A stretch of DNA of 64,000 nucleotides from Phyllobates terribilis (taxonomy: Eukaryota), in assembly GCF_046119375.1 (NCBI RefSeq), contig NW_027362762.1, forward strand, positions 454,832,001-454,896,000, given 5' to 3'. Position 1 is the stretch's first letter. Every line of letters starts with the position of its first letter. This document shows positions 1 through 38,767 of this stretch, one piece after another. A model generated the notes under the pieces. The model was not told the DNA's origin, ran no database searches, and saw only the letters and a program-made list of their open reading frames with translations. Made by a program: the position numbers and the translations under genes.

Positions 1-957
1 ATGAATCTCCTGTAGTAGCCTACCCGCCCGAGGAACTGCCGCACTTCCTTGATAGTGGAGGGTCTTGGCCAGTCCTTGATCACAGTGAATTTTTCAGGGT
101 CTGGTGCTTACCACATGAACTAGGTACTTGCACCTTGGGCTTCAAAAGGTGGCACTAGGACGGCTTTACTTTCAGGTCATAATCAGATAGGGCTTCGAAC
201 ACCTCGGACAGGTGCTCCAGGTGGTCTTCATATGTCTTTGAGTAGACGATTACATCGTCAAGGTACAGCAGGACGGTTTTGAAGTTTTTGTGTCCTAGGC
301 AACACTCCATTAACCGCTGGAAGGTTCCTGGGGCGTTGTAGAGCCCGAATGGCATGCAGTTGAACTCGCTGAGGCCCATTGGTGTTGTAAACGCGGTCTT
401 TTCTCTGTCCGCCTCTGCCACAGGAACCTGCCAGTACCCACTGGTGAGATCCAAAGTGGAGAAATAGTTAGCTGATCTCAATGCTGCTAATGATTCCTCA
501 ATTCTGGGTAATGGGTAGGCGTCCTTATGTGTAATGCGGTTACTCTGCCTGTAATCAACACACATCCTCATTGTACCATCCTTCTTTCTAACGAGAACTA
601 ATGGAGCTGCCCAGGGGCTACAACTATCTCTGATCACCCCAGCCTCCTTCATCTCCCGTAACATTCCTTTGGCACATTGATAGTGAGCTGGGGGTACAGA
701 CCGCTACCTCTCTTTAATGGGTGGATGATCTCCCGTGGGGATATAATGTTGGACCCCTTTTACCTGCCCAAAGTCTAGTGGGTGTTTGCTGATGACTCGC
801 TCATATTCTTCGACCACCCGGTATACTCCATGCTTTTGGTGCAAAGGGGTGGAGTCAGTGCCCACTTGTAGCTTCTGACACCAATCCTCCATCTGCCCCT
901 TGGAGCCATTATCCTCCGCCGGTTTGGATGGAGGCAAGGGTTCCACTGTCTTCATTG
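1..957 (-). pseudogene. pol: Ty3/gypsy pol fragment (RT plus upstream linker) of element A; continues beyond the left window edge
   Basis: ORF 155-664 has SPWAAPLVLVRKKDG, RMCVDYR, TLDLTSGYWQ, MPFGL and YLDD motifs. It has a premature TAG at 155-157 and frameshifts, after which [28 protein letters not shown] can still be read. Confidence 0.95.
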
Positions 958-2167
958 TGTGGCGCCCCTGAGGGTTCGGTCGCCACAGAGGTATTGCATC
1001 TCATCCAGAGGTGTGGTATCTCACTCTCAAGTAAGGAAGGAGTATGGCTCAGGACCCTAACACTACATCCACTACACCACATTTCCGGGGGACAGGGCGA
1101 TAATGCTCCTACGTAGAGCACAAGTGTCCCTGATCCCTGGCTGGAGTGGGGGGAACCACCTAGAGAGGGGGAACTAGGTAGTGGATGGGTGGAGGACGTA
1201 GATCCTGGGAGCACTGGAGTAGGAAGTATAAGTATGGGAACCATCTTAGTTCAGTGTGGTCAGTCAGAGGAGGAAAGTGTCAGGATCAGGGGCTCTGTAC
1301 GAGCTCTGCTCCACAGGCAGGCCTAGTTAAGAGGCCTGAGCCTGAAAGGAGTAAAGAGAGGAAAGGGGAGGAGGAAGGCTCCAGGACAGGAACCGAAGGG
1401 ACCCTAGGGATACGTGCCGTGCAGCCACCACCCGTACGCCCGCCGCTGCCAGGAGGTAGGGGGGTCAGGCCAGAAGAAGGGAACCGGATCCCTCAACCAG
1501 CAGAGACTACAGGGCTCAACTGGGAACCGGAGGCTGCAGCACTTCAAGTACAGCAAGCCGTCCACACCAGCCACTAGGAAAGTAGCCACATAGGGCCAGG
1601 GGACGGAACACACGTCGCCCGCCAAGGCCCGAGGACACTGGACAGAGGTGCCGCTAGGTGTGAGGTACAAGGAGAATGGCCAGAGAGGACACACAGAAGG
1701 GGTCCTGAAAAGTACTCCGGAGTTACCTGAGGGTCAACCGGGCCCCACACTGTGTGAGCACAGGACGCCGTGGGCTTTTACACTGGCCCTGTAACTGGAA
1801 CTACTTAAACCGTGAGTAAAGGATCTGGGACTGCATCATGTGGACTCTGTGATCATTCTTGCACCGCGACACATTGCACCATCACCACCATCATCCATAC
1901 ACGCTGCCCTGAAGCTACACTCTTCCTATGGGGAGTTACACTGCCTTGCTGCGCATATCACCAGCTTCAGTGGACTGCTCCGCAGCGCCGGTTCCCAATA
2001 ACCGCATTCCACAGGTGGCGTAGTCGGACTATTTAAACCAGATACACATAGACTACCCCTGGTTTGACCGCCCTGGGTCACGGACCAGGTCACCACCACG
2101 GTGACTACAACCCCCAGCATCTACAAGGCCTGGCTCCGGGTATCCCCACTGCCCAGGGGGCGCGTCA
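958..2167 (+). repeat. 5' LTR of element B
   Basis: TGTGGCGCCCC...GGGGCGCGTCA; about 36 substitutions plus 2 small indels versus 7284-8498 (about 97% by manual count). Confidence 0.95.
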
Positions 2168-2171
2168 ACTT

Positions 2172-2189
2172 TGGCGTAGTCGGCAGGAT
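2172..2189 (+). promoter_or_regulatory. Primer-binding site of element B, tRNA-Ser (AGA-type 3' end)
   Basis: TGGCGTAGTCGGCAGGAT, 4 nt after the LTR end; it is the reverse complement of the vertebrate tRNA-Ser 3' end ATCCTGCCGACTACG-CCA (recalled from memory). Confidence 0.9.
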
Positions 2190-2537
2190 ACGTAACCCAC
2201 CCGTTATCATTGGGTATTGTGTGCCTAAAAGACTGTGTTTTCTACTGAATGTGGCGTCCACCCCTGAAGAACGGGCGCCATTATGAGCCAGCCAAACAAC
2301 AATCAAAGGCCACCTCCCATCGTGGGCCAGGTTCCAGAATGGCGCCAAAAGCGGGGCCCGCCCCAACCAGCAGTGATCATGCATGTGGATGTGTCCATCG
2401 ACGTGGGGGGGCTGCCCTTGGAGGTGACCGACAGCAGACTGCCCTGGAACCGCCCCTGAAAGGGGAGGGGAGGCAAGAAAACTGAGAGACAGGGTGTGGT
2501 CTGGACCAGTCGAGGCAGGCCGCACACGGGAAAGGAG

Positions 2538-3752
2538 ATGGACCGTGGCAGCTCCGGAGACCCTGCCAGCGACATGCTACAGGCCGAAGCGCCATATACC
2601 CTGGAGGAGCTGGTGGCCAAGCTCCCCTGGGAGGATGCCGAGTTCCTCCGCGCCGGCATGCAAGATCTGGGCCGGAGGATGGCCAGGGCGCAGCGAGACG
2701 CCATTGCGGACTGGAAGAGGGAGATGGAGCAAAGGATGGCGGCCCGGCAGCCAGCGATGCTGCCTAGCACCGGCGGCGCCCCAGCCTCCGAGGACCAGGA
2801 TCGTGGTCAGGATACCGCGCCTGAAGCAGGAGCGGCCGCAGGAGCAGGTAGGAGAAGTTCTCCTGTGCCGGACGCTGTAAGCGTCGACCTGCCACTGGGC
2901 CCCCTGGTGGAGTCGCAGATCCCGGGCGTCACCGAAGCTGTCCCATTCCCGACACCAGAGCCTGGCCCTTTAAACCAGGGCGAGACCGCCACATGCCTAC
3001 CATGCATATACCAGGGCGCGCCAGTTCCAAGTGCCCTCCAGACCCCGGAACCAGCTCCAGACGCCAACGACGCCGGCCCGCTCCTAGGTCCCCTGCAGGA
3101 GCCGCCCCCTCCGACACCCGAATGGGTGTATGGGTGCTTCCCCTGGGACTGGTCCGCGGAGGTGGAGGACCAGCGGCCTTCACTCCTGCCCGCTCCACAG
3201 CCCGCCGCCGCCGCTTCCCAGGTACCGGAGGATGAGGCCCAATTTGAGTGGGATAACTCAGGGGAAGATTTAATGGGGTTCTCCCAGGAGACCAGGGCAG
3301 CCGCAGCCCGCTGCAAGGAGTTCTGTTATCAACAGCTGATCAAGTTTGAAAAAGAGCGGAGACAGCGGCGTGAGCGGTGGGAGCAACTCGAGGCCAGGAA
3401 TATGGAGGAAAAGGCCCGGACCCGCCATGACAAGCGAGCGGCTCGTGGTCCCAGAATTACCGGGACCGTGGTAAAATTCAACCTGGACGCAGGATGGGGG
3501 TTCGTCTGGGACCCGCTGACAGACACGGATCTCTTTGTAAATAGAAGAGACGTGGAATCCCGCCTGCCAGAGGGACATCCAGATCGGGACCTGTATCCCG
3601 GGGACACCGTGTCCTACACCAGGCACCGAGGAGTAAGGGGCTGGTATGCCCTCAATGTCCACCGGTTGGAGACAGAGTTCCACCATGCTGAAGACCCGGC
3701 TGGGTCAGCCAGTGATGGACCAGAGCCTCCCCGCAGGGAGCACCCTTACTAA
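2538..3752 (+). CDS. Retroelement-encoded protein: helical N-terminus, Pro/Ala-rich linker, basic coiled coil, C-terminal cold-shock domain (about nt 3456-3668)
   Basis: Open frame 2496-3752; first ATG at 2538 in good context (GAGATGG), 404 aa. The segment TGTVVKFNLDAGWGFV..DLFVN..LYPGDTVSYT..GVRGWYALNVHRL aligns by eye with CspA TGIVKWFNADKGFGFI..DVFVH..LDEGQKVSFT..GAKGPAAGNVTSL. Confidence 0.85.
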   Translation: MDRGSSGDPASDMLQAEAPYTLEELVAKLPWEDAEFLRAGMQDLGRRMARAQRDAIADWKREMEQRMAARQPAMLPSTGGAPASEDQDRGQDTAPEAGAAAGAGRRSSPVPDAVSVDLPLGPLVESQIPGVTEAVPFPTPEPGPLNQGETATCLPCIYQGAPVPSALQTPEPAPDANDAGPLLGPLQEPPPPTPEWVYGCFPWDWSAEVEDQRPSLLPAPQPAAAASQVPEDEAQFEWDNSGEDLMGFSQETRAAAARCKEFCYQQLIKFEKERRQRRERWEQLEARNMEEKARTRHDKRAARGPRITGTVVKFNLDAGWGFVWDPLTDTDLFVNRRDVESRLPEGHPDRDLYPGDTVSYTRHRGVRGWYALNVHRLETEFHHAEDPAGSASDGPEPPRREHPY

Positions 3753-4547
3753 GTACTGTAAGAGGAACTGAGCATTTAGGATGTAAATAAGTTACCCGTC
3801 AGGGTATGCAGGGACACTGCAAAAAGTTTGTTGTTTACCAGGTTGCCCGAAAGGATGCAGTTCTACGTTGAAAAACTTGTGAGTGTTCATTAGTTACCCG
3901 GAACGGGTCCAAAGACTAACCGGCTGAGGACTGGGAGCAGCCGCTTTTTGTAAATAGTTGCACCTCTTAAGGTGCCCCTTATTGGTTTTATAAGAACTTC
4001 AACGAGTACCTCAGAACAAAAACCCGTTGGAGGTGGCCGAAGACGAGGTCCAGCACCTGCTTCATCTAAGCCCTGCAGCCACCCCAGGGCCTCCGTTGAG
4101 GGTTTGGGATGGGTCCCTCATATTCGTGTTTGCAAGTTTGCACTTTATTGAAAAATGGACATCTGGTTGCAGACATCACTGTGACCGGTTGACCAAAAGT
4201 TTACTTGAAAAGTTTATGTGAAAATTGTTTTTGATATGACAAATGGCAAAATATGAAGAATGTTTATGACGGAAATGTTTTATACGCAAAGGAAATGTTT
4301 ATAATGTCTTATATATAAAGTACAGACCAAAAGTTTGGACACACCTTCTCATTTAAAGATTTTTCTGTATTTTCATGACTATGAAAATTGTACATTCACA
4401 CTGAAGGCATCAAAACTATGAATTAACACATGTGGAACTATATATTTAGCAAAAAAGTGTGAAACAACTGAAAATATGTCTTATATTCTAGGTTCTTCAA
4501 AGTAGCTACCTTTTGCTTTGATGACTGCTTTGCACACTCTTGGCATT

Positions 4548-4659
4548 TGTAGCGCCCCGAGGGCTTGGTTGCTACAGGAGTATTGCACCTCACCCAGAGG
4601 TGTGATATTCCACTCCCAGGTAAGGATGGAGTGTGGACCAGGGCTCAGTTAGCTGCATG

Positions 4660-4690
<31 letters not shown>

Positions 4691-5833
4691 CATTTCCGGG
4701 GGACAGCTCGACGGTGCTCCCAGCTGCGGGCACAACTGACCATGTCCCTGGCTGGAGTGGGGAGGAGGGAAGAGAACCCAGTGGTGTAGGAGCAGAAAGG
4801 GGGCGGTTTCTGGAGCATAGGAAGGAGCTCATTGGGTGCAGGTCACCTGAGCTCAGACACAGAGAAGCAGATAAATGGTGGGGGCCATCTTGGAGAGTAG
4901 TTCAGTCAGAGGAGAAGAAAGAGAGAGCTGACAGGGAGCAGCGGCTCAGGCTGAGCTCAGCTCCACGAGGCAGGCCTAGAGAAAAGGCCGGGGCCAGAGA
5001 GGAGAAGAGAAGAAGGAGAAGGAAGGAAGGAGAAGAGACAGAGGAGTGGAAGGGCTCCAGAAACAAGAAGGCAGAAGGGACCCTAAGAGTGCAGAATGGC
5101 CAGCAACCGTTGCATACCCCATTATATCGGGTGGAAGGGTCAGGCTGTGAAAAGGTACCGGATCCCTAAGTTGGTGGAGGCGAATCTACCCTCAGCCAAG
5201 AACCGGAGGTTGTGACCATTTATTGGTGCGAACCCCCCGCTAAACCTGCTAGGAAGGCACCATATAGGATAGCGGGAAGTGAAGGCCAACGCTTACCCGA
5301 CACGGTCCGCGGTAGCTGGACAGAAGTCAGGACACTGGTGGGGCACGAGAGGCCAGAGAAAGGACAGAAGGGGGTCCTGTGCCATACTCCTGAATTGCCT
5401 GGGGGTTGACCGAGCTCCTCACCTGGTGGACGCAGCACGGCTCGGGCAGTCCTTGCTGACAGAAGTGACTTGGATAACAACTGTGAGTAAAAGACCCTGG
5501 ACTGCATCATTGGACTCTGTGTGATTTCTGCTGCGCCTGCACCATCACCCCCAGCATCCACTTACACTGCCCTGAGGCTACACTCTTCCCATGGGGAGTT
5601 ATCCTACCCCTGTGCTGCACACCAACATCAGCCTCAGCGGTCTGCCTCGCAGCGGCGGTTATCTCTGACCGCAATCCACGGGTGGCGTAGTCGGACATTC
5701 AAAACACTGATAAATAGACTGCCACAACATTGGTCTGACCACCCTGAGCCACGGGATCGGGTTGCCACTACTATCCCCAGCATTGTACAGAAGCCCGGTT
5801 CCGGGTACCCCACGGCCCAGGGGGCGAGTTACA
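4548..5833 (+). repeat. Solo LTR C (relative of the B LTR) inserted in the Tc1 TIR; contains a (CA)n tract at about 4659-4687
   Basis: TGTAGCGCCCC...GGGGCGAGTTACA, co-linear with the B LTR. The opposite TIR gives the empty site GGCATTCTCTTG. TSD CATT overlaps the terminal CA (2-bp ambiguity). Confidence 0.85.
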
Positions 5834-6648
5834 TTCTCTTGATGAGCTTCAAGAGGTAGTCACCGAAAATGGTCTTCCAACAATCTTGAAGGAGTTCCCA
5901 GAGATGCTTAGCACTTGTTGGCCCTTTTGCCTTCACTCTGCGGTCCAGCTCACCCCAAACCATCTCGATTGGGTTCAGGTCTGGTGAATGTGGAGGCCAG
6001 GTCATTTGGCATAGCACCCCATCACTCTTCCTCTTGGTCAAATAGCCCTTACACAGCCTGGAGTTGTGTTTAGGATCATTGTCCTGTAGAAAAATAAATG
6101 ATGGTCCAACTAAACGCAAACCGGATGGAATAGCATGCCGCTGCAAGATGCTGTGATAGCCATGCTGGTTCAGTATGCCTTCAATTTTGAATAAATCCCC
6201 AACAGTGTCACCAGCAAAACACCCCCACACCATCACACCTCCTCCTCCATGCTTCACGGTGGGAACCAGGCATGTAGAGTCCATCCGTTCACCTTTTCTG
6301 CGTCGCACAAAGACACTGTGGTTGGAACCAAAGATCTCAAATTTGGACTCATCAGACCAAAGCCCAGATTTCCACTGGTCTAATGTCTATTCCTTGTGTT
6401 CTTTAGCCCAAACAAGTCTCTTCTGCTTGATGCCTGTCCTTAGCAGTGGTTTCCTAGCAGACTCTTGGTCTTCCTTTCCTGGGGCGGTCCTCATGTGAGC
6501 CAGTTTCTTTGTAGCGCTTGATGGTTTTTGCAACTGCACTTGGGGACATTTTCAAAGGTTGCCCAATTTTTCGGACTGACTGACCTTCATTTCTTAAAGT
6601 AATGATGGCCACTCATTTTTCTTTACTTAGCTGCTTTTTTCTTGCCAT
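5829..6648 (-). pseudogene. DD38E transposase remnant
   Basis: MARKKQLSKEK* at the N-terminus, then GRPR, an internal deletion, WSDESK, KHGGGGVMVWGC and QDNDPKH..SPDLNPIE. The C-terminus is split by solo LTR C and ends near 4479. Confidence 0.9.
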
Positions 6649-7267
6649 AATACAAATTCTAACAGTCTATTCAGTAGGACTATCAGCTGTGTATCCACCA
6701 GACTTCTGCACAACACAACTGATGGTCCTGGCCCCATTTATAAGGCAAGAAATCCCACTTATTAAACCTGACAGGGCACACCTGTGAAGTGAAAACCATT
6801 TCCGGTGACTACCTCTTGAAGCTCATCAAGAGAATGCCAAGAGTGTGCAAAGCAGTCATCAAAGCAAAAGGTGGCTACTTTGAAGAACCTAGAATATAAG
6901 ACATATTTTCAGTTGTTTCACACTTTTTTGTTAAGTATATAATTCCACATGTGTTAATTCATAGTTTTGATGCCTTCAGTGTGAATGTACAATTTTCTTA
7001 GTCAAGAAAATACAGAAAAATCTTTAAATGAGAAGGTGTGTCCAAACTTTTGGTCTGTACTGTATATGTGAAGAAATGTTTTATAACATGTGAAGAAAGT
7101 GTTTATAATGTTTTGGTAAATGAAATGTAACCAGTAACGTTAAAAGAAGTATGCCTCCCATAAAGGGAAGATGTGTTGTTTACAATCTTATATGCGGACA
7201 TGTCCTAAAATTTTGTATGTCTTTTGAAATTGTCTTTTACTCTGTTCCAGCCCGCGGACGTGCTGTG

Positions 7268-7283
7268 TTTTACCAGGGGGGTG
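7268..7283 (+). promoter_or_regulatory. Polypurine-tract region of element B
   Basis: TTTTACCAGGGGGGTG abutting the 3' LTR; the equivalent in element D reads TTTTACTACGGGGGAA (minus strand, 12683-12698). Confidence 0.7.
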
Positions 7284-8498
7284 TGTGGTGCCCCTGAGGG
7301 TTCGGTCGCCACAGAGGTATTGCATCTCATCCAGAGGTGTGGTATCTCACTCTTAGGTAAGGAAGGAATATGGCTCAGGACCCTAACACTACATCCACTA
7401 CACCACATTTCCGGGGGACAGGACGATAATGCTCCTACATAGAGCACAAGTGTCCCTGATCCCTGCCTGGCTGGAGTGGGGGGAACCACCTAGAGAGGGG
7501 GAACTAGGTAGTGGATGGGTGGAGGACGTAGATCCTGGGAGCACTGGAGTAGGAAGTATAAGTATGGGAACCATCTTAGTTCAGTGTGGTCAGTCAGAGG
7601 AGGAAAGTGTCAGGAGCAGGGGCTCTGTACGAGCTCTGCTCCACAGGCAGGCCTAGTTAAGAGGCCTGAGCCTGAAAGGAGTAAAGAGAGGAAAGGGGAG
7701 GAGGAAGGCTCCAGGACAGGAACCAAAGGGACCCTAGGGGTACGGGCCGTGCAGCCGCCACCCGTACGCCCGCCGCTGCCAGGAGGTAGGGGGGTCAGGC
7801 CAGAAGAAGGGAACCGGATCCCTCAACCAGCAGAGACTACAGGGCTCAACTGGGAACCGGAGGCTGCAGCACTTCAAGTACAGCAAGCCGTCCACACCAG
7901 CTACTAGGAAAGTAGCCACATAGGGCCAGGGGAGGGAACACACGTTGCCTGCCAAGGCCCGAGGACATTGGACAGAGGTGCCGCTAAGTGTGAGGTACAA
8001 GGAGAGAGGCCAGAGAGGACACACAGAAGGGGGTCCTGAAAAGTACTCCGGAGTTACCTGAGGGTCAACCGGGCCCCACACTGCGTGAGCACAGGACGCC
8101 GTGGGATTTTACACTGGCCCTGTAACTGGAACTACTTAAACCGTGAGTAAAGGATCTGGGACTGCATCGTGTGAACTCTGTGATCATTCTTGCACCGCGA
8201 CACATTGCACCATCACCACCATCATCCATACACGCTGCCCTGAAGCTACACTCTTCCTGTGGGGAGGTACACTACCTTGCTTCGCATATCACCAGCTTCA
8301 GTGGACTGCTCCGCAGCGGCGGTTCCCAATAACCGCATTCCACAGGTGGCGTAGTCGGACTATTTAAACCAGATACACATAGACAACACCTGGTTTGACC
8401 GCCCTGGGTCACGGACCGGGTCACTGCCACGGTGACTACAACCCCCAGCATCTACAAGGCCCGGCTCTGGGTATCCCCACTGCCCAGGGGGCGCATCA
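7284..8498 (+). repeat. 3' LTR of element B
   Basis: Direct repeat of 958-2167; followed by TSD ATTG. Confidence 0.95.
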
Positions 8499-8502
8499 AT
8501 TG

Positions 8503-10257
8503 CGTTGTTACTGACAGTGAATAGCTTAGCAAAGGTAGCATACCGGGGTAAATGGACCTCTTTCTCCACACAATTCAGGATGCGTATCGGTACTCTCCCC
8601 TTGCGGACATCAACTACCCCCCTTGCTGTCAAGATGGTGGGCCTACTGTCAGAGTACACGGGTTCTACCAGGGCCTGATAATTTTGACCCCTGAGACCTA
8701 TTGCTGCCCGACACCATATTATCATTTCACTCCTAGGGGGCATTGCAATGGGGAATGGATCACTCATCCTGACACTGCCAATTTCTCCACCAGACAGCTC
8801 TACCTGTTGTCTTTTCATCAGGGCTCTGATTTCCATCTGTAGAACTCGCTGCTGACTGGAACTGGCAGTCTCTGCAACAAAACAATTTCTCCAAGACAAT
8901 TTTCTATCACATTGGTGCCTAAGGTTATCATAGGATGACTGTCTCAGGGATCAATATCAACAATAATCATTCCTTGTGATGGCAATTCTACTCGGCCAAC
9001 TTTTATGGTCACCTGTTTATACCCCACCTGAGGCAAGGGCTGACCATTGCTGGCATAGATGCTAAGATGTTCATCTTGACTGCTGGTAATGTCTGAGTCA
9101 GTCTAGTATAGTTTATAAAGGATATATGGCATCGTTGTCACCTGGGACCCAGTGTCCAGCAGTGCGTTCATCGGGATGCCATCAAGCACGACAGGCAGGA
9201 CCGGTCGTCCTCCCACGTGCTTGTCTCGCCAGTTTTGTGGGCCTGGTCGTCTTACTCCTGCGGGGTTGACCCACTGCCCCAGGGGTTGCTCGTTTAAATT
9301 GCAGAATCTTGTGATGTGCCCCGCCTTTTGACAGCGGCGACAGATGGGTTGTCCGTTCTGGTCTTAGCGATCGCTGTTTCTCCCTCTGGTCGGTGGAATC
9401 TTTCTCTGCCGTCGCCACGGGACATCATCTGGACTGGAAACCAGCTGGATCTTTTCCTTTGGAGACACTTGCATGGCCTGCACAGTTTTGGTTAGTGTAG
9501 CCATACTTTTTGTCAGCTCCTGGACCTGAAGGCGTAGGTCCGCAGATGGATCATTATCTAGGGTCTGCGCGTCAGCCCCCACAGGTGCTGGGGAAAAGGA
9601 CGCCACCTCCTGGTGGTATGTGATAGCTGGGCGCTGGAGGGATGCAGTGCCACCTGGGGTTGGTTCTCGTAGCACCCGGATGGCTCGGTCTTTAAATTGC
9701 GCAAAGTCCAGATCAGGGTTTTGCAGAGCCATAATGCGCAGCTGTATCCGGTGAGAGTTAGACAGGAGCCCCTCAATAAACTGCTCAGTTAGCAATCTGT
9801 CCTCGTCTTACACACTGTCAGGGTCTACCTGTTTAATGGCCCGCAGCGCCTCCTGCAGGTTTAGAGCATAGTCCCGTACACTGTCCTGCACCCTTTGTTT
9901 GCACCTGTAGAACTTCATTTTAATCTCTGCTGCTGTGCGGGTGTCAAAGGTATCCTTCAACCGGGCCAGTATTTCCTTAACAGTGCCTTTGTCCCTGCCC
10001 GGCCAGGACTTCACCTCTCTCTGGGCTGCATCGATTAGCTGGCCTATGAGGATACTGACTTTTTGCTCCTCAGACAGGGGGTACACTTTAAACAAACTGC
10101 GCAGTCTCTCCTCAAAGTCGGTCAGGGTGCTTGACTCCCCTGAGTACTGGGGCAACCACGCCGCCCCTGGTATATATGGCATTGATAACGGCATTACAGT
10201 GGCGGCTGCCGGGCCCGCAGCTAGATCCTCTCCCAGGTTGGGCATCTTCCTCCCCAC
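8503..10257 (-). pseudogene. gag: Element A gag (PNMA-like, CCHC knuckle), protease and PR-RT linker
   Basis: MPYIPGAAWLPQYSG gag start region; in-frame stops at 9808 and 9364; knuckle CRRCQKAGHITRFC; slippery TTTAAAC at 9292-9298; protease LLDTGSQVT near 9148-9156. Confidence 0.9.
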
Positions 10258-10710
10258 TAGTGAACCTCAGCCAGGTCCTGGGTTTCTGCTGATGTACCAG
10301 TCTGCTGCTCTGCAGGTCACTGTACAGCTGCACTCTTGCTGCACAGCTTCTCACACTTGTATTGTATTCACAGAACTGCAGCAGCTGGGTGGATGGGATC
10401 ACACAGCACAGAGCTTCATCAGCTGGGATGGATGGATGGGATCACACAGCCCTCTGCAGGGGGAGGCAACAATCTCCCCCCTCAGTCTGATGCAAAGGGG
10501 AAGGCTGGCACCTTTCAGCCTGAGTGACAGACAACTCTGGTACAGTCTATGCAAGTGGGAGGGGCCTATTTTGACACCGATTCTGAGGCTCCTCCCACGA
10601 TGGGACACCCCACATATCATTAACTCCGCATGTGCTACAGTAATGGCTGCAGTTTATACAGTTATACACAGTCTTTGTGGCACACAGGACCCGGTTATAT
10701 CGGGCTTCGT

Positions 10711-10730
10711 GAATCCTGTTCGTGACGCCA
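10711..10730 (-). promoter_or_regulatory. PBS of element A, tRNA-Ser (CGA-type 3' end)
   Basis: The minus strand reads TGGCGTCACGAACAGGATTC, complementary to the tRNA-Ser 3' end GAATCCTGTTCGTGACG-CCA (recalled from memory). Confidence 0.85.
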
Positions 10731-11581
10731 AGTACTCCCTGGGCCGTGGGGTACTCGGTAGCCGGGCCGGTCAATAAAAGGGGTTTTAAAGAAAAGGGAA
10801 TAGCGTTTCTATATATAATGTTCGTGACGCTACCTGTGGTATGCGGCTATATGGAGCCGGCGCTGCGGTGCAGATCCTCTGGAGCTGATGATGACGCAGC
10901 AGAGTTGGCTCAGCTCTCCACAGGCAGAGCTTAGTTCCAGGGCAGGAAGTGGTGATGTTATAGATGTTGCTGTGCAGTGTAGTGCAGGGGATGGGGGAGA
11001 TAATGACCAGTCCACAACTTAATGGTGGTTTCCTCTTACCTTTACTTGCGGTGGTTAGGCAGACCGGGGCACGGGTACTAGCTGGTAGTAGAGGTCCAGG
11101 CGGCCTGGAAGCAAGTTGGGAATCCACCCTGCCAGGTGAAGTTGTAGGCCTTCCCTTTGCGCTAATCTCTTTGGCCCTGGTGCTTATAGCTGTGCTGCGG
11201 CCCTCGTCCCTGAGTAAAACGTCTTTGTGCTCACCCATATGGCAGGCAGATCGGGCCTTCCTGGAGTGTCGCTCCCACGTGGCGGTGCTGGGCCCTATGT
11301 GCTGCTGAGCTTCTGGGCGTCTGATGGGGCCAGGAGACTTGCAGTCTCCTGCTTCCGGTTTCTGCTGCTGGGCCTTCAGTGCCCCACAACGTCGGACTCC
11401 GGTGTCCAGTTCTTCTGCGCTTCCCTCTGGGGTGAACTGCCCTGCAGCTCGACTCCCCAGGTCTTTCTTCGTCGCTGTCCTGTATTCAACTCCTCTCACT
11501 AACTCTTACTAACCCCGCCTCCAGATTCCAGTTGCTAAGGGGAGGAGCTCCACTTGCTGGTCTGGAGCCAGGAAAGTGTTG
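10731..11581 (-). repeat. 5' LTR of element A; U5 terminus damaged and U3 head interrupted by element D
   Basis: Co-linear with LTR D (CCCTGGGCCGTGGGGTACTCGG..GTTCGTGACG..CCTGTGG). It lacks the terminal GGCGCGTCA and breaks at 11581. Confidence 0.8.
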
Positions 11582-12682
11582 TGACGCGCCCCCTGGGCCG
11601 TGGGGTACTCGGCAGCCGGGCCTCTTACGGATGCCGGTATGGGGAATATCACGGTGGCTGGCCCGGGCCGTGACCCAGGGCGGTCAGTAAAAAGGGGGAT
11701 TTGATAGGGGATTTGGAAAGTTCGTGACGCCACCTGTGGAATGCGGCCTATGGGAGCCGCCGCTGCGGAGCAGTCCTCTGGAGCTGGTGTTACGGCAGCA
11801 GGAATGATGTGGCTCTCCACAGGTAGAGCTAGCTCCAGGGCAGTGTAGGGGTAGATGGTGGATGCTGGGGAGAGACGGCAGGATGGTCCCGGAGGAAAGA
11901 CGGACACTCACACGGGGGTAAGCTTCAGTGCCTTTACTGGTGATGTTGCAGGCATGGTCCAGGGTACTCCGGGCGAAGGGCGCACTTCTGGACTCTCCCC
12001 AGTGAGCGGGTATATGGCCTCCTGATCCGTGGCTTTACTCACTAAGCTTCTGGCCTGCCTGGAGCTAGGCCTAGCTTGGTTACTGTCTCTCTTTGCACCT
12101 GCTGACCTAGTGGTAGGGCCTTCTTTTGGAAATCACTCTCCCTGTACACTGGGGCCTCCGTGTCTCCTAGCCCTGGTACTGTAGTCAGCATTAGGTAAAC
12201 CTGGGACCTGTAGTCCTCCAGGGGTTCCGGTGGTTCCTACTGGGTATAAATGCCCCTGTAGGCGTAGACCCGGTGTCCGGTATATATCTCGGGGTGAGCC
12301 TGGTATGCTCCTCTGCCCCCCTCGCTACTTCTTCCTTCTCCTCTCGCCTTTGACCCACTCAAGGTCCTCACTAGGCCTTCACACGTGCTGTAGGCCTAGG
12401 CTTGCCTAAGCACAGCAGCCAGCGCGCAGCCTCTTTGCTGCTCTCTGAGCGTCAGCACGCTCTCTACTCAACTCTGAGCTCTGTCCCTCTCTGTGTCTGA
12501 GAGACTAACTAACTCACTGAGCTGCCTGGCTCCACCCTCCCTATATATATCCCTAACGGGCTCCCTCTGCTGGTCTGAGGTGGTAGGGTGGAGGTGTGTG
12601 AATGTGTGAGGTCCTCTTGTGGAGAAGTCCATCCATGCACCCTTCTGGGTTCTGTAGCACCAATGCGCAGCAGGGTGCCACA
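11582..12682 (-). repeat. 3' LTR of element D
   Basis: The minus strand runs TGTGGCACCCTG...GGGGGCGCGTCA and is preceded by a PPT. Confidence 0.85.
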
Positions 12683-13029
12683 TTCCCCCGTAGTAAAACT
12701 CAGTACTCCTGGACTGAAGCATTTTTTTTCAAAACAGGTTAACAATAACATTTCTTCCCTTTATGGGAGGCACTTTTCTTGAACGTTACAGGTAACATTA
12801 TAATACAATAATAACAATTATGAATAACATTAAAGTTACAGCAAGTCCCGTAACCTGGTGTCCATTTCACCGAAGAAAGAACATGAGGGACCCGCCTGAA
12901 AACCCTCAACGAACGCCCTGGGCGTGGCTACAGGGCATTGGTGATCCAGGTGCTGGACCACGTCTTTGGCCACGCCAAATGGGTTTTTGTTCCGTGGTCA
13001 CTTAAGGGGCACTCCAGGGAGTGCAACTA

Positions 13030-14600
13030 CACTGTGTTCCAAATTATTATGCAAATACTATTTTCTCAGATTTTCCCAAATTACCTATATGAATTGCAGT
13101 CATTGTAATTTTCCAGTCAAATAACTATCAGAGTACAATTGAAAGGTTTTTGTACAAACTGCCTATGATAACAGTATATTTTTTAAAAAATAAAACACTC
13201 AAAACTGCACTCAAAATGCATGTTCCAAATTATTATGCACAGCAGAGTTTTCAACCTTTTCATTTTAATAAAGAACAAAAAAATGGTCATTTTTGAAATT
13301 ATAAGCATTAGCAGGTTATTACAAACTGAAATCAAACAGTTTTCAACTCAAAACTTTATTCTAGGTGATGTAACATTTGCACATAGGACCCCTTGTTGGA
13401 AAGAAGCTTCTGAACTCTCTCATTCATTGAATTTGTCAGGTTTTGGATGGTTTCTGCTTCAATTGTTTTGCATGAGGACAGAATACCCTCCCAGAGCTGT
13501 TGCTTAGATGTGAACTGCCTCCTGCCATCATAGACACTCCTTTTTATGATGCTCCAGAGGTTCTCAATGGGGTTGAGGTCAGTGGAGCATGGGGGCCACA
13601 CCATAAGTTTGTCCCCTTTTATGCCCATAGCAGCCAGAGATGCAGATGTGTTATGTGCAGCATGAGACGGGGCATTATCATGCATGAAATGATCTCGATG
13701 GTCCAGATGGATGGAGTGGAGGATGGCTGGTTGATGGACACCCCATGCAAACACGGCTACGGCGCTAACAAGGAGGAGGTGGAGTAATGTTTTGGGCTGG
13801 AATCATGGGGAGAGAGATTGTCAGCCCTTTTAGGATCCCTGAAGGGGTAAAGATGAACTCCATAATGTATGTTGAGTTTCTCAAACAGCACTTCCTTCCA
13901 TGGTTCAAGAAGAAGAACCGTGCATTCCGCAGCAAGATCATTTTCATGCATGATAATGCCCCGTCTCATGCTGCACATAACACATCTGCATCTCTGGCTG
14001 CTACGGGCATAAAAGGGGACAAACTTATGGTGTGGCCCCCATGCTCCCCTGACCTCAACCCCATTGAGAACCTCTGGAGCATCATCGAAAGGAGTGTCTA
14101 TGATGGCGGGAGGCAGTTCACATCTAAGCAACAGCTCTGGGAGGGTATTCTGTCCTCATGCAAAACAATTGAAGCAGAAATAATCCAAAACCTGACAAAT
14201 TCAATGAATGAGAGAGTTCAGAAGCTTCTTTCGAACAAGGGGTCCTATGTGCAAATGTTACATCACCTAGAATGAAGTTTTGAGTTGAAAACTGTTTGAT
14301 TTCAGTTTGTAATAACCTGCTAATGTTTATAATTTCAAAAATTACCATTTTTTTGTTCTTTATTAAAATGAAAAGGTTGAAAACTCTGCTGTGCATAATA
14401 ATTTGGAACATGCATTTTGAGTGCAGTTTGAGTGTTTTATTTTTTTAAAAATATACTGTTATCATAGGCAGTTTGTACAAAAACCTTTCAATTGTACTCT
14501 AATAGTTATTTGACTGGAAAATTACAATGACTGCAATTCATATAGGTAATTTGGGAAAATCTGAGAAAATATTATTTGCATAATAATTTGGAACACAGTG
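13030..14600 (+). mobile_element. Tc1-like DD37E (TRT-type) foldback derivative
   Basis: Termini CACTGTGTTCCAAATTATTATGCAAAT, TA on both sides. About 670-bp inverted arms (13030-13695 and 13931-14600) both encode the transposase C-terminus. 37 residues lie between HD and NPIE. Confidence 0.92.
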
Positions 14601-20763: not shown

Positions 20764-20940
20764 GGTTGCGCCCCCCTAGTAAACCGTAGCCTACCTTCTT
20801 CACTTTTTATCACGTATGCCGCAACTCTGCTTGCGACGGTCTTCTTCCAGGACCTTGCGTCGCTCATGTCTGATGTCAGTGTCCTCTGGGCTCCTTCCAG
20901 GACCTGACGCTTCCTGGTTCGACGTCAGGGGCGGGGCGTG

Positions 20941-21024
20941 TCCTGGGTTTCGCTTCCAGGCATGGCATCACCCCTTGTGAGGGAGGCAATGCCACTGCGG
21001 CAACCGGACTCCTAGGGTGCCACA
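20941..21024 (-). repeat. Isolated LTR head (about 85 bp) fused to the leader of element D
   Basis: TGTGGCACCCTAGGAGTCCGGTTGCCGCAGTGGCATTGC resembles the heads of LTRs B and C but differs from LTR D after 11 nt. Confidence 0.6.
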
Positions 21025-33335: not shown

Positions 33336-34554
33336 TGCAACGGGTCTGGGAGGCGGAACCTCTGAGCTACTATACAAGGGGGCGGTCCTTGTAAGGGAGC
33401 GGGTGGCGACCAGGGAAGACGGGCAGGAAGTCACAGCAGGTGACCGGGACAGTCTCTGAGTGAACGGGCTGGAGGTCACGGCAAGTGACCGGGGCAGTCT
33501 CTGAATGAACGGGCAGATGGTCACGGCAAGTGACCGGGGCAGTCTCTGAATGAACGGGCAGATGGTCACGGCAAGTGACCGGGGCAGTCTCTGAATGAAC
33601 GGGCAGATGGTCACGGCAAGTGACCGGGGCAGTCTCTGAATGAACGGGCAGATGGTCACGGCAAGTGACCGGGGCAGTCTCTAGGTAAAGGGTTGGTACG
33701 ACCTGTGGCGGCTGATGATAGACGTGAGCTCCCAGGTGAGCAGGCGAGAGTCTCTGGATGAACGGGTGGTCACAGCATGTGACGGCGGAGCCTCCAGGAA
33801 GACCAACAGACAGGCGGCAGATGAGCGCTCCCAGGTGAGCGGGCAGAAGTCTCTGGACAGGCGGGTGGTCACAGCACGTGACGGCAGAGCCTCCAGGTAG
33901 GCTAGCAGACAGGCAGCAGATGAGCGCTCCCAGGTGAGCGAGCAGGAGTCACTGGACAGGCAGGTGGTCACAGCACGTGACGGCGGAGCCTCCAGGTAGG
34001 CTAGCAGGCAGGTAGAAGTGTGCTCCCAGGTGAGCGGGCAAGCTGGTCCATAGACAGACTGACAGGAGTTGGAAGGCAGACCGTCGGACCTCAGGCAAGC
34101 AGGCAGGTGGCTGATGTGCGCTCCCAGGTGAGCGGGCAGGCTGGTCCTTAGACAGACTGACAGGAGTAGTAAGGCAGACCGTCGGACCTCAGACTAGCAG
34201 GCAGGTAGCAGATAATCAGGCAGGAATCTGGCAGGTAACTGGCAGGTAACTGGCAACGGGACCTGAGGGCTGAAGCAGAGTAGTGAACAGTGCAACAACA
34301 TTGCTCGGGCACCTCCATTTTGGAGGAGGTGTCTTATATATGGTGAAGTCCACCGGCCATTGGCCGGGGACTCCTTAGGACGGCGCGCGCGGCCCCTTTA
34401 AGAGGGAGGGAGAGCGCGCACGCGCGCCCTAAGCACAGTGGCCGGGAAGGAGCGCGCGCTGCCAGCAGAGCGGGAGGAGGACGCCGGGCACGGAGCAGAG
34501 AGGTGAGGGGAACAGCGTCCCTGCCTAGCAGAGGGCAGGGACGCCGGCGCTACA
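33336..34554 (-). repeat. 3' LTR of element E
   Basis: Preceded on the minus strand by the purine tract AAAAAAGGGGGGGCCTAAAGGGGGGGTAC; contains 45-bp tandem units. Confidence 0.95.
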
Positions 34555-37500
34555 GTACCCCCCCTTTAGGCCCCCCCTTTTTTAGGCCAGACAGAAATTT
34601 AGCTAGGATAAGAGGGGCATGGATGTTCTCCCGGGGCTCCCACGTTCTCTCCTCAGGACCAAACCCCTTCCAATCTACTAGAAAAAAGGTCTTTCCTCTT
34701 ACCCTTTTGGTGGCAAGAATGTTCTCTACCTCAAACTCGTCCTCAGCAGAAACCGGAGCAGGAGGCGTACCTGTAGACTTGGAAAAAGAGTTAAGTACCA
34801 CAGGTTTGAGGAGAGATACATGGAAGGAGTTAGGGATCCGTAAGTTGGCCGGGAGTTTCAATTTATAGGCCACCGGGTTGATCTGACTGATGACCTCCAG
34901 AGGACCGATGAACCGAGGCCCTAACTTGTAAGAAGGTATCTTGAGTCGGACATATTTAGATGAGAGCCAGACTTTATCTCCAGGACGAAATTGTGGAGGA
35001 TCCAGGTGTTTTTTGTCAGCGTGTCTTTTCATCCGTTCGGACGACTGAAGGAGTGCGGATCGGGTACTCTCCCAAATGGAGGAAAATTTGCTAACGAGAG
35101 ATTCCGCAGCCGGGTTGTCCACAGAGGTGGAGACAGGAAAAGGAATCCGAGGATGCTGACCGAAGACTACAAAAAACGGGGATTTGGAGGAGGATTCGCT
35201 CTCGTGATTGTTATAGGAGAACTCGGCCCAAGGTAGGAGATCCACCCAGTCTGAATGGTGGGCATTAACGAAGTGCCGGAGGTAACTGGTCAGGTTCTGA
35301 TTGATCCGCTCCACTTGACCATTGGACTGTGGGTGGTAAGCGGAAGAGAAATCCAGGGTGACGTCTAGCAGTTTACAAGTGGCTCTCCAGAAACGTGAGG
35401 TGAACTGTACCCCACGATCCGACACGATGTGGAGGGGCAGGCCATGAAGACGGAAGATGTGGCGGATAAAGTCTTTAGCCAGCTCGGGTGCAGACGGGAG
35501 GCCTGGCAGGGGAATAAAGTGAGCCATCTTGGAAAAGCGGTCAGCGACCACCCAAATGACCGTACAACCGGCAGAGACGGGGAGATCAGTTATGAAGTCC
35601 ATAGCAATATGCTGCCAGGGGGCAGCAGGCACAGGAAGCGGAAGAAGGCGACCGGCTGGCAGGTGTCTCGGGACTTTGTTGCGGGCGCAGGACACACAGG
35701 CAGAAACAAAGTCTATTACGTCCTTGTGCAGGGTAGGCCACCAGTAGTGCCGGGCAATAAGCTGGAGGGTCTTGTTCTGACCGGCGTTGCCAGCTAGTTT
35801 AGACGAGTGACCCCAGTGTAGGATCTTCTCCCGATCAGGTACTGATACGAACGTCTTACCGGGAGGGAGACGATTTAGACTCACGGGAGCCACCTGCATT
35901 ACTCTGGCGGGATCGATGATATGTTTAGGTTCTTCCTCGAGATCGGACACCAGAAAGGATCGGGACAAGGCAATAGCTTTGACGTTTTTGTCAGCCGGGC
36001 GAAAATGAAGAACAAAATCAAAGCGAGCAAAAAACAAGGACCACCGGGCTTGGCGCGAGTTAAGTCTCTGGGCATGCTGGAGGTAAGCCAAGTTCTTGTG
36101 GTCAGTGTAAATTATTACCGGGTGGAGAGCCCCCTCGAGTAGGTAACGCCACTCCTCCAATGCCAGCTTGATGGCCAATAACTCTCGGTCTCCTATGGAA
36201 TAGTTGCGCTCAGAAGAGGAGAAGAGTTTGGAGAAGAAGCCACAAGTTACCATTCTCCCGGAAGATGATTTTTGAGTAAGTACCGCTCCGGCTCCAGAGG
36301 AGGAGGCGTCAACCTCCAGGAAGAACTGCTTGTTGTCGTCCGGGCGATGCAGCACCGGGGCGGAAGAGAAGGCCTGTTTTAGGGAAAGAAAGGCCTCCTC
36401 TGCTTCGGGCGGCCACTCTTTGGGATTAGTACCCTTACGGGTGAGCGCGGAAATTGGGGCAGTCCGGGAAGAGAAGTGTGGTATGAAGAGGCGGTAGTAG
36501 TTGGCGAAGCCCAGGAATCGCTGAATGGCCTTCAACCCCTCCGGTCGAGGCCATTTCTCGATGGCAGACAGTTTCTCTGGATCCATTCGTAGGCCGGTCT
36601 GAGAAATAATGTAGCCCAAAAACGGAAGCGAGGTCTGCTCAAAGAGGCACTTCTCGTATTTAGCGAAGAGGTGATTCTGCCTGAGCCTGAGCAGGACCTG
36701 ACGAACGTCCCTCCGGTGAGTCTGGAGATCCGGAGAGAAGACCAAGATGTCGTCCAGGTACACCACTACGCAGGAGTAGAGAAGGTCCCGGAAGATGTCG
36801 TTGACCAACTCTTGAAAGACGGCAGGAGCGTTACAGAGACCAAAGGGCATTACCAGATATTCATAGTGGCCGTCCCGGGTGTTGAATGCCGTCTTCCATT
36901 CATCCCCCTGACGGATACGAACCAGGTTGTACGCCCCACGGAGGTCCAGTTTGGTGAAGATTCTAGCCCCCCTCAGACGATCAAATAACTCCGGAATGAG
37001 CGGAAGGGGGTACTTATTCTTCACCGTGATCTGGTTAAGGCCTCTATAGTCTATACAGGGACAGAGAGAGCCGTCCTTCTTTTTGACGAAAAAGAAGCCT
37101 GCTCCCGCCGGGGAGGTAGATTTCCGGATGAATCCCCTGGCCAGATTCTCCTCAATATATTCAGACATCGACCGGGTCTCAGCAGCGGATAATGGATAAA
37201 TACGCCCACGGGGAGGAGTAGTACCAGGTAACAGGTCGATAGGGCAGTCGTATGGTCTATGAGGGGGTAGTGTCTCTGCTTCCTTTTTATTAAAGACATC
37301 AGCATAAGACCAATAAGGAATCGGAAGTCCGGGTAGATTAGCTGGGGTAGGAGAAGGACGGACGGGATGGACGGGAACCAGACAGGTCTTATGGCAGTCC
37401 TGTCCCCAGCGAAGGACTTCTCCGGTCTGCCAGTCAAGCACGGGTGCATGTCTCTGGAGCCAAGGTAGACCTAGCAAGAGGGCGTGAGAGAGTCCAGGCA

Positions 37501-37822
37501 GAACATGAAAGGAGATACTCTCAGAATGCAGCATTCCCACCTGCAGAGTAATGGATTCGGTGATGAGTTGGATGGGGCGTGGTAAGAGACCCCCATCCAC
37601 GGCAGCAACAGACAAGGGTACAGCCAGAGGTTTGGTGGGGATGCGGTATTTCTCTACCAGGGACTGTGAAATAAGATTTCCGGCTGCTCCAGAGTCAAGT
37701 TGGGCTAGTTCGAAATAACGGTTCTCCCCGCAGACGATTGAGACTGACAACAGCAGAGATGGAGAGGATTTATTCTTGTCTAGGTCGACCTCTCTGAGCG
37801 AACCTAGACACAGGCGTTTCCC
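34550..37822 (-). CDS. pol: Pol of element E: PR (LDSGA), RT (YLDD), RNase H, integrase, chromodomain; expressed by -1 frameshift
   Basis: The 1066-aa ORF is open upstream to the slippery site; C-terminal EFEVENIL..FLVDWKGFGPEERTWEP chromodomain; the stop codon lies inside the 3' LTR. Confidence 0.95.
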   Translation of the reverse strand, partial: GKRLCLGSLREVDLDKNKSSPSLLLSVSIVCGENRYFELAQLDSGAAGNLISQSLVEKYRIPTKPLAVPLSVAAVDGGLLPRPIQLITESITLQVGMLHSESISFHVLPGLSHALLLGLPWLQRHAPVLDWQTGEVLRWGQDCHKTCLVPVHPVRPSPTPANLPGLPIPYWSYADVFNKKEAETLPPHRPYDCPIDLLPGTTPPRGRIYPLSAAETRSMSEYIEENLARGFIRKSTSPAGAGFFFVKKKDGSLCPCIDYRGLNQITVKNKYPLPLIPELFDRLRGARIFTKLDLRGAYNLVRIRQGDEWKTAFNTRDGHYEYLVMPFGLCNAPAVFQELVNDIFRDLLYSCVVVYLDDILVFSPDLQTHRRDVRQVLLRLRQNHLFAKYEKCLFEQTSLPFLGYIISQTGLRMDPEKLSAIEKWPRPEGLKAIQRFLGFANYYRLFIPHFSSRTAPISALTRKGTNPKEWPPEAEEAFLSLKQAFSSAPVLHRPDDNKQFFLEVDASSSGAGAVLTQKSSSGRMVTCGFFSKLFSSSERNYSIGDRELLAIKLALEEWRYLLEGALHPVIIYTDHKNLAYLQHAQRLNSRQARWSLFFARFDFVLHFRPADKNVKAIALSRSFLVSDLEEEPKHIIDPARVMQVAPVSLNRLPPGKTFVSVPDREKILHWGHSSKLAGNAGQNKTLQLIARHYWWPTLHKDVIDFVSACVSCARNKVPRHLPAGRLLPLPVPAAPWQHIAMDFITDLPVSAGCTVIWVVADRFSKMAHFIPLPGLPSAPELAKDFIRHIFRLHGLPLHIVSDRGVQFTSRFWRATCKLLDVTLDFSSAYHPQSNGQVERINQNLTSYLRHFVNAHHSDWVDLLPWAEFSYNNHESESSSKSPFFVVFGQHPRIPFPVSTSVDNPAAESLVSKFSSIWESTRSALLQSSERMKRHADKKHLDPPQFRPGDKVWLSSKYVRLKIPSYKLGPRFIGPLEVISQINPVAYKLKLPANLRIPNSFHVSLLKPVVLNSFSKSTGTPPAPVSAEDEFEVENILATKRVRGKTFFLVDWKGFGPEERTWEPRENIHAPLILAKFLSGLKKGGPKGGVL
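37762..37822 (-). promoter_or_regulatory. -1 ribosomal frameshift signal: GGGAAAC plus H-type pseudoknot
   Basis: Slip site 37816-37822; 6-nt spacer; stem 1 GTCTAGGT/ACCTAGAC; stem 2 GAGAGG/CCTCTC; pol is in the -1 frame relative to gag. Confidence 0.8.
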
Positions 37823-38754: not shown

Positions 38755-38755
38755 G

Positions 38756-38765
38756 GCCCGAGCAA
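38756..38765 (-). promoter_or_regulatory. Self-priming PBS of element E
   Basis: TTGCTCGGGC, 2 nt after the LTR. It is not a TGG tRNA site; it is perfectly complementary to GCCCGAGCAA at 39700-39691, about 30 nt downstream of a TATATAAG box in the LTR. Confidence 0.8.
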
Positions 38766-38767
38766 AC

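Follow-up and report, generated by a model that had tools for sequence, protein, structure and literature searches.

Why should a long terminal repeat (LTR) carry, inside its own 3' part, a second copy of the primer binding site (PBS) that lies just beyond its end? The question is raised by a window of 64,000 nucleotides from Phyllobates terribilis (contig NW_027362762.1, positions 454,832,001 to 454,896,000 of the forward strand), i.e. the whole stretch of DNA analysed here, for which a sequence-only reading had noted that the LTRs share a hairpin followed by a PBS-like 12-13-mer that changes with the primer tRNA. It had proposed a function for this arrangement, namely a second tRNA docking or priming site, a strand-transfer aid or a decoy for 3' tRNA fragments, or alternatively a fossil junction between LTR end and PBS, captured by LTR extension.

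The window is a nest of Gypsy-type elements, in which element B is inserted in the pol region of element A, a Tc1-like element sits inside B, a solo LTR (C) lies within that Tc1-like element, and the 3' LTR of element D abuts the 5' LTR of A. The 5' LTR of B (958..2167, forward strand) and its 3' LTR (7284..8498, forward strand) are 97% identical (1172 matches, 36 mismatches) and bounded by the TSD ATTG (954-957 and 8499-8502); solo LTR C (4548..5831, forward strand) has the TSD CATT. Element B is a non-autonomous Gypsy-type element that uses a tRNA-Ser AGA/UGA primer. No gag or pol was seen in its interior, which holds a 430-codon open frame (2460..3752, forward strand) that ends in a cold-shock domain of the RNA-chaperone type, barely above the Pfam cut-off (CSD, 28 bits versus 27) and possibly a cargo gene of this family. 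The 3' LTR of D (11582..12682, reverse strand) is of the CGA type, whereas its 5' LTR is a short stub fused to the leader (20775-21022, reverse strand) that has lost domain and PBS. The window further holds a chromodomain Gypsy element (33370-39700, reverse strand), which has an open pol frame of 1101 aa, is flanked by near-identical repeats and is unrelated to the lineage discussed here, and two Tc1-like DNA transposons nested in LTR elements plus a BED-finger (hAT-like) remnant (4318-7070, 13024-14600, 53249-55955).

The motif itself is far above chance, and all coordinates first given for it check. The word TGGCGTAGTCGG occurs at 2016-2027, 2172-2183 (the true PBS of B), 5683-5694 and 8347-8358 (four matches versus 0.13 expected), TGGCGTCACGAAC occurs on the minus strand at 10718-10730 (the true PBS of A), 10820-10832 (one mismatch) and 11720-11732 (three versus 0.02 expected), and the frame CGCAGCG-N18-AWWCCACRGGTGG is found five times and never in shuffles. 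We refer to the internal PBS-like site, which lies within U5 of these Gypsy-type LTRs, as PBS'. In the 5' LTR of B (2016..2027, forward strand) it is the complement of the NCCA end plus the acceptor 3' strand of tRNA-Ser(AGA/UGA) and directly follows a helix, Pc, described below. The assignment to U5 follows from the hexamer AGTAAA (1815..1820, forward strand), likely the poly(A) signal judging by its position across LTRs, which in 150 of 156 LTRs precedes PBS' by 130-300 nt (median 211 nt); everything downstream of it, including the domain described below, likely falls in U5.

The lineage is abundant: an internal 19-nt motif has 130,042 exact matches in the 10.6-Gb genome (control 0), LTR-end/PBS junctions number 38,520 genome-wide, and a related pattern recovers 2,055 junctions of the CGA type. 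It shows the TG...CA LTR ends, PBS, PPT and 4-bp TSDs of Ty3/Gypsy LTR retrotransposons, along with their domain order, i.e. gag, protease, RT and then integrase in the Pfam matches on element D. Among named RT relatives, the closest come mostly from frogs (about 55-80%) and from fish (about 48-58%). The domain was absent from the 80 loci examined of 120 stretches from a metagenome pattern scan, no relatives were found in viral contigs, and a comparison of gag with PDB gave no useful match.

Both primers are tRNA-Ser. Genes for tRNA-Ser(aga) and (tga) carry the first primer 3' end (ARAGORN, 4 of 12 loci) and a tRNA-Ser(cga) gene carries the second (1 of 10 loci). Among the 23 loci at which tRNA sequence continues past nt 18, five are genes and 18 are LTR-end/PBS junctions, which shows that these tRNAs prime at the true PBS; the 18 elements concerned are genomic records of read-through into the tRNA-Ser primer, extending in some of them to the anticodon arm. 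The true PBS is thus canonical, an 18-nt complement of a genomic tRNA that is copied during replication. That of B lies at 2172..2189 (forward strand), 4 nt past the LTR-terminal CA. This spacer (2168-2171 in B) is variable among junctions genome-wide, mostly 3-5 nt and longer in some divergent ends; compared with 2 nt on the PPT side, it points to unequal end processing. A third primer type was absent from the 100 listed of 458 junction matches and from the 100 listed of 7,761 internal matches. One candidate, TGGCGCAGTCGG, was rejected, since no such tRNA 3' end occurs among 32 matches and 12 of 16 loci share one flank and have no PBS, i.e. represent one mutated solo LTR carried by another repeat. 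Two solo LTRs have multiplied as passengers of other repeats, as seen from shared flanks, and one of them is the source of most listed copies of the T6C variant.

Does PBS' follow the primer beyond this window? In a non-random sample of 160 5' LTRs (mostly first matches on contig C1, chosen by junction patterns, with ten duplicate or tandem copies removed), the type of PBS' equals that of the true PBS in 156 (88 AGA/AGA, 68 CGA/CGA); PBS' is absent in the other four and no pair is discordant. The tracking of the primer by the internal site therefore held in the wider alignment that the sequence-only reading had proposed as its check. How much this says about function depends on how often the primer was switched. 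The LTRs fall into an A1 group (AGA type, including B and C of the window), a divergent AGA group (A2) and a CGA group. R/U5 trees built without PBS' need one change of type for the first 70-71 LTRs, and with A2 added two (combined and distal trees) or three (domain tree), while a single AGA clade is not rejected by AU tests (p 0.129, 0.123 and 0.436). Leader and U3 trees mix the primer types (3 and 5 changes), as is expected if R-U5 travels with its primer, although the U3 tree is weak, its long rows being mis-anchored. Moreover, R-U5 and primer are physically linked in strong-stop DNA, which counts against independence. Since the trees need only one to three switches, one being not rejected, the concordant copies are not independent; the concordance is real, but as a sign of function it is weakened, resting on only one to three ancient switches.

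A separate line of evidence comes from conservation. Between clusters of 90% identity, nt 6-11 of PBS' show an identity of 0.98 in the AGA type (top 0.7% of windows) and of 0.85 in the CGA type (top 15% of windows, with CpG decay), versus 0.41-0.47 for the neighbouring, fast-evolving spacer (2029..2063, forward strand), which is G-poor (G fraction 0.038). The motif is thus not decaying freely, and the comparison supports purifying selection on PBS'. The change G10A in the CGA type was discarded as a variant because it resembles CpG decay elsewhere. In single PBS mutants PBS' almost never has the same change, so the two sites are not routinely copied from each other. Identity between PBS' and the 18-nt PBS is kept over nt 1-11 (1-12 in the CGA group) and drops to 0-0.08 at nt 15-16 in all three groups, in A2 being 0.08 already at nt 12. 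These 11 nt equal NCCA plus the 7-nt acceptor strand, nt 11 being the end of the acceptor stem, and the 12-13-mer of the first description accordingly shrinks to a conserved core of about 11 nt (12 in the CGA type). Its position needs a similar adjustment: the distance from PBS' to PBS is mostly 143-190 nt, and the 102 nt found in A are due to a deletion in that copy.

The length of the match bears on the proposal that PBS' is a decoy, soaking up 3' tRNA fragments aimed at the PBS. That 3'-tRFs repress LTR retrotransposons via the PBS (as stated in the accessible part of PMC12853362) and that PBS' is present in every LTR copy would suit such a role. Nevertheless, the predicted energy of pairing with the tRNA is -34 to -37 kcal/mol for PBS and -20 to -26 kcal/mol for PBS', i.e. 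weaker by 10-15 kcal/mol, and nt 15-16, in the T-arm part, are almost always absent; a pseudoknot and a site for the tRNA 5' end (see below) would be superfluous in a decoy, and the commonest mutated variant is the passenger solo LTR, 12 of 16 loci sharing one flank. We consider a decoy very improbable.

If PBS' were an alternative priming site, or an acceptor for second-strand transfer, 18-nt tRNA copies or LTR ends should be found at it, and such products are at most rare. PBS' extended into the T-arm complement has four matches genome-wide, versus about 38,500 normal junctions; of the four, two are fusions to PBS, in one a deletion reaches a nearby word, and L126 is a clean conversion. In L126 (contig C2, position 938330858; 3' LTR in L174) the 5' LTR alone has exchanged the six bases after PBS' for the remainder of the 18-nt PBS, which is a snapshot of conversion or of rare internal priming. 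That L126 fits one internal priming event, and that L127, L128 and L185 are PBS'-to-PBS fusions, speaks for occasional priming, whereas the 3' LTRs are full length in L126 and L127, the two elements in which they were found. Of 115 breaks after the internal CCA, 30 were examined; most of these are small deletions or substitutions, and four leave the LTR, none with a TSD shown and two (L187 and L198, where the 5' flank could be compared) without a matching one. Clean LTR ends at the internal CA were absent from the same 30 of 115. Judged by this genomic record, PBS' does not normally prime and priming takes place at the true PBS, so that a routine second priming site is disfavoured and priming or strand transfer at PBS' is highly unlikely as its role.

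What precedes PBS' is more elaborate than a hairpin. Covariation and helix search predict a doubly pseudoknotted domain of ~110 nt with five helices (1907..2015, forward strand), a feature that, like the site for the tRNA 5' end, the sequence-only reading had missed. Helix Pa (1907-15/1964-73) encloses Pb (1919-23/1932-36), the loop of which forms the 5' strand of Pc (1925-31/2009-15) and reaches the far 3' strand; Pd (1948-52/1982-86) crosses Pa, and Pf (1988-93/2000-05) is the hairpin noted originally. PBS' starts at the base following Pc. Domain plus PBS' recur at 8232-8359 in the 3' LTR of B, 5564-5695 in C (both forward strand), 11720-11846 in D and 10820-10948 in A (both reverse strand). 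Over 58 copies, 97.2% of cells are paired, with two-sided change in 14 of 31 pairs; none of 500 shuffles reached this, and slid controls gave 32-58%. The 31-pair fold was scored on the sequences it was derived from, so that the score is partly circular, and the shuffle ignores relatedness. RNAalifold unaided recovers Pa, Pb and the core of Pf, 11 pairs change Watson-Crick type between one and ten times each, as counted on a tree of outside columns (recombination inflates the number), and the A2 group, which stood outside the derivation, adds compensations in Pd (GCCGC/GCGGC, 12 of 21) and in Pc (two copies). The plus strand is favoured by 51 G.U versus 22 A.C pairs. Single-sequence MFE folds are inconsistent, and Rfam gave nothing near threshold for it in window 1-14000 and six loci. 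An alternative hairpin, CTGC-N3-GCAG, also picked by RNAalifold, was dropped in favour of Pd, as it cannot form in several subfamilies and the covariation in A2 falls in Pd. As for the compensatory changes originally claimed for Pf, two of the four examples are mismatches, CCGGCT/AGCCGC in A having a C.C closing pair, as does CCGGTT/AACCGC in the 5' LTR of B; covariation of the hairpin is real in the wider alignment only. The 5' LTR copy of B has one mismatch each in Pc and Pf, and the 3' LTR copy neither.

The domain also bears on the idea that PBS' is a relic of a former LTR-end/PBS junction, stranded inside the LTR by its extension and since then updated through rare templated conversion from the PBS. 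A CA does lie 2-5 nt before PBS', as at a real LTR end, U5 is much shorter in sister lineages, and L126, where PBS' has become a full 18-nt site in one LTR, the 5' one, demonstrates that conversion occurs. With one clean case among four matches, however, conversion is far too rare to hold an identity of 0.98 across clusters, and it yields 18 nt where the fixed forms end at 11-13; furthermore, the CCAC(A/G)GG word covaries with an upstream strand, being the 3' strand of a helix and not a plain LTR end. A fossil junction may account for the origin of PBS', not for its upkeep; as a neutral relic it is largely refuted, and as an explanation of the present site we regard it as quite improbable.

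A third site that relates to the primer lies in the distal U5. This site X precedes the PBS by about 60-85 nt and reads as the reverse complement of the primer 5' end (GTCACGGTGGC or GTAGTCGTGGCC); in the 5' LTR of B (2095..2108, forward strand) it complements tRNA nt 1-11 with a bulge. It is continuous in the CGA and A2 groups, i.e. GCCAC followed by YGTGAY or GRCTGC, respectively, and bulged in A1, where GCCAC is followed by a gap or mismatch of 1-5 nt and GACTAC/ACTAC. Further copies lie at 8426-8439 (3' LTR of B), 5764-5774 (C) and 11648-11658 (D, reverse strand); element A (10713..10948, reverse strand; true PBS for tRNA-Ser(CGA) at 10713-10730), with its distal U5 partly deleted, has lost it. 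When the distal U5 was scanned with 12-nt tRNA windows, the peak fell at nt 1-12 in all groups. The own tRNA beats the other one in 23 of 23 A2 copies (nt 1-12; shuffle fraction 0.001) and in 32 of 46 CGA copies (nt 1-11), while A1 is hardly above controls (own tRNA best in 16 of 28; shuffle fraction 0.24). The distal U5 (2064-2167, forward strand) in addition runs from an initial TGAC to a final GTCA, is similar to the LTR 5' end and can form a long stem that would bring PBS' close to PBS; the LTR end can pair with PBS nt 1-6 too.

The GCCAC half of X has no collinear partner in the PBS, which points to the tRNA. The 3' half of X has further possible partners in PBS and PBS', given the resemblance between tRNA nt 1-7 and PBS nt 5-11, so that pairing free of tRNA accounts for part of the pattern. 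This leads to the main rival to a tRNA dock, namely an intramolecular switch in which PBS' pairs with X (or with the A1 spacer word) and keeps X off the true PBS, the tRNA meeting only PBS and X. In its favour, nt 5-10 of PBS' and of PBS alike are complementary to X in all three groups, with an own-type score of at least 5/6 in 28 of 28 A1, 22 of 23 A2 and 37 of 46 CGA copies; the conserved word GACTRC at the spacer end (GACTAC, 2051-2056, in B) can fold back on PBS' in A1 only, and a 9-bp helix between PBS' and PBS itself is possible in the CGA group. What the switch leaves unexplained is that, in every group, conservation is no lower at nt 1-4, which complement NCCA, than at nt 5-10, and that PBS' starts exactly where Pc ends; its internal partners, moreover, vary between groups. 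We therefore consider a switch that operates apart from tRNA docking unlikely.

We favour, at a probability of roughly 0.55, a reading in which PBS', abutting the predicted double pseudoknot, and site X constitute a non-priming dock that captures and opens the tRNA-Ser primer, i.e. the second tRNA docking site among the functions proposed at the outset. The free NCCA of tRNA-Ser would pair with PBS' and invade the 7-bp acceptor stem, the tRNA 3' end would stack on helix Pc, and site X would take the displaced 5' strand (nt 1-11/12); Pc, located where RT would have to start, would block extension. The opened tRNA could then move to the stronger 18-nt PBS (about -35 versus about -23 kcal/mol) or, as an alternative last step, a second tRNA could remain docked during packaging, the dock acting before or alongside priming at the true PBS. 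Such a dock would build on what was seen directly, namely the complementarities and their switching with the primer, conservation, covarying helices, true-PBS priming and the near-absence of internal-priming products. Against a simple open dock stands the prediction that PBS' is largely paired inside the RNA (mean unpaired probability 0.28-0.43).

In a variant without hand-off, a second tRNA would stay at PBS' as a bridge for dimerisation or packaging, for instance with its 3' end on one RNA and its 5' end on the X of the other. One tRNA cannot occupy PBS and PBS' together, since both take the tRNA 3' end, and tRNA bridges have been proposed for Ty3 and Drosophila gypsy (in the accessible parts of PMC1635307 and PMC4974528). 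The sequence data, however, fit one tRNA as well as two, and deletion of the bipartite PBS does not prevent Ty3 packaging (PMC4974528, part of the text), which makes a bridge rather improbable. More tentatively, the docking reading can be extended to a tRNA aptamer encoded by the LTR, comparable in a eukaryotic retrotransposon to the T-box discriminator, in which aptamer the tRNA-Ser 3' end would be stacked on the pseudoknot such that only uncharged tRNA is admitted, and site X would unzip the tRNA before it is loaded on the PBS. If this doubtful extension is true, an RNA does a job usually given to nucleocapsid protein, and the domain represents a new natural tRNA-binding fold that may bear on the abundance of the lineage.

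Sister lineages indicate how far any of these roles could be general. In 20 sister elements from four lineages, which have an AGA-type PBS for the same tRNA, no 11-mer within 2 mismatches of PBS' was found, which argues against the dock as a general requirement. Their AGTAAA-type hexamer lies 58-101 nt upstream of the PBS in 18 of the 20, and matches to the domain model in 3 of 19 scanned elements represent separate insertions. As these lineages prime with the same tRNA without PBS', the long U5 with its domain is an innovation and not a general need. Within 150 nt downstream of the PBS, the sister elements do contain stretches partly complementary to tRNA-Ser nt 1-14, at -12 to -18.5 kcal/mol (scored without shuffle control), and capture of the primer's 5' end may be common to the whole clade.

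The observation, in short, is real, selected and structurally rich, its proposed function being read from sequence alone. How one specific uncharged tRNA is selected, packaged and opened is known in detail for few retroelements. Here a single genome offers more than 130,000 natural variants of a covarying RNA device, three sites that track the tRNA and natural primer swaps, which together with sister lineages that lack the device make the question testable on a 300-nt transcript.

Some known RNAs resemble the arrangement in part. In the bacterial T-box antiterminator, folded RNA offers UGGN to the NCCA of an uncharged tRNA, which is stacked on an adjacent helix. The likeness is confined to this UGGN-beside-helix geometry: at PBS' the pairing extends through the acceptor stem, no anticodon-reading stem is seen, and the specifier stem, T-box sequence and terminator switch of a T-box riboswitch, or an Rfam T-box match, are absent from window 1-14000 and six loci. 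HDV-like ribozymes form a nested double pseudoknot with a P3/L3 hairpin after the P2 5' strand and a catalytic C in J4/2. The domain shares their wiring of a first helix, a long closing helix, a crossing short helix and a hairpin before the last strand, but the alignment shows no P3 hairpin, its last joiner AWW has no conserved C, the strand after Pc 5' pairs upstream, and Rfam gives no match, so that it does not belong to that class. A contact between the tRNA 5' end and U5 has also been described for FIV and HIV-2; neither a search of the open-access literature nor the accessible part of PMC2504303 confirmed it. The TRIMs Helenus, Ajax and Cassandra have LTRs with small-RNA-related sequence (PMC10886601, in part), which in their case are sense tRNA- or 5S-derived polymerase III promoters, whereas PBS' LTRs carry antisense words only and, at 1.1-1.3 kb for the LTRs alone, have neither the sense A/B boxes nor the size (<1 kb) of Helenus-type TRIMs; tRNA-family matches are absent from window 1-14000.

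The closest parallels are retroelements with extended primer pairing. In Ty1 and Ty3 the PBS is multipartite, extra RNA sites pairing with the primer tRNA and serving packaging and initiation (PMC4974528, in the part available), and a 5' pseudoknot of Ty1 is required for reverse transcription (PMC3681743, likewise in part). By that definition, extra sites that are complementary to the primer and track it are present in PBS' and X (X weakly in A1), and of the two only X is complementary to a part of the tRNA (nt 1-11) that differs from the one taken by the PBS. The extra sites of Ty1 and Ty3 pair with T and D arms and lie in gag or the 3' UTR, unlike PBS', which matches the same NCCA/acceptor 3' strand as the PBS, in U5 and flush with a pseudoknot helix, and unlike X with its match to nt 1-11. 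Drosophila gypsy has two 11-nt sites for one tRNA species, of which cDNA synthesis needs only the canonical one; the second lies close to the 3' end of the RNA and has the anticodon and T stems as its partners (both from the accessible part of PMC1635307), so that one tRNA bridges both sites, which is impossible for PBS and PBS'. In retroviruses, a primer can be switched only if the primer activation signal (PAS), which lies in U5 upstream of the PBS, is changed along with the PBS (PMC11181671, part of the text); the PAS pairs with the T arm, whereas PBS' duplicates the PBS itself. Within the open-access literature, to which the search extended, no duplicated acceptor-end PBS inside U5 is reported, and the combination of PBS' and pseudoknot in U5 is apparently undescribed. 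The arrangement works like known extended primer-template pairing, none of the known cases of which duplicates the acceptor-end site or sets it on a U5 pseudoknot.
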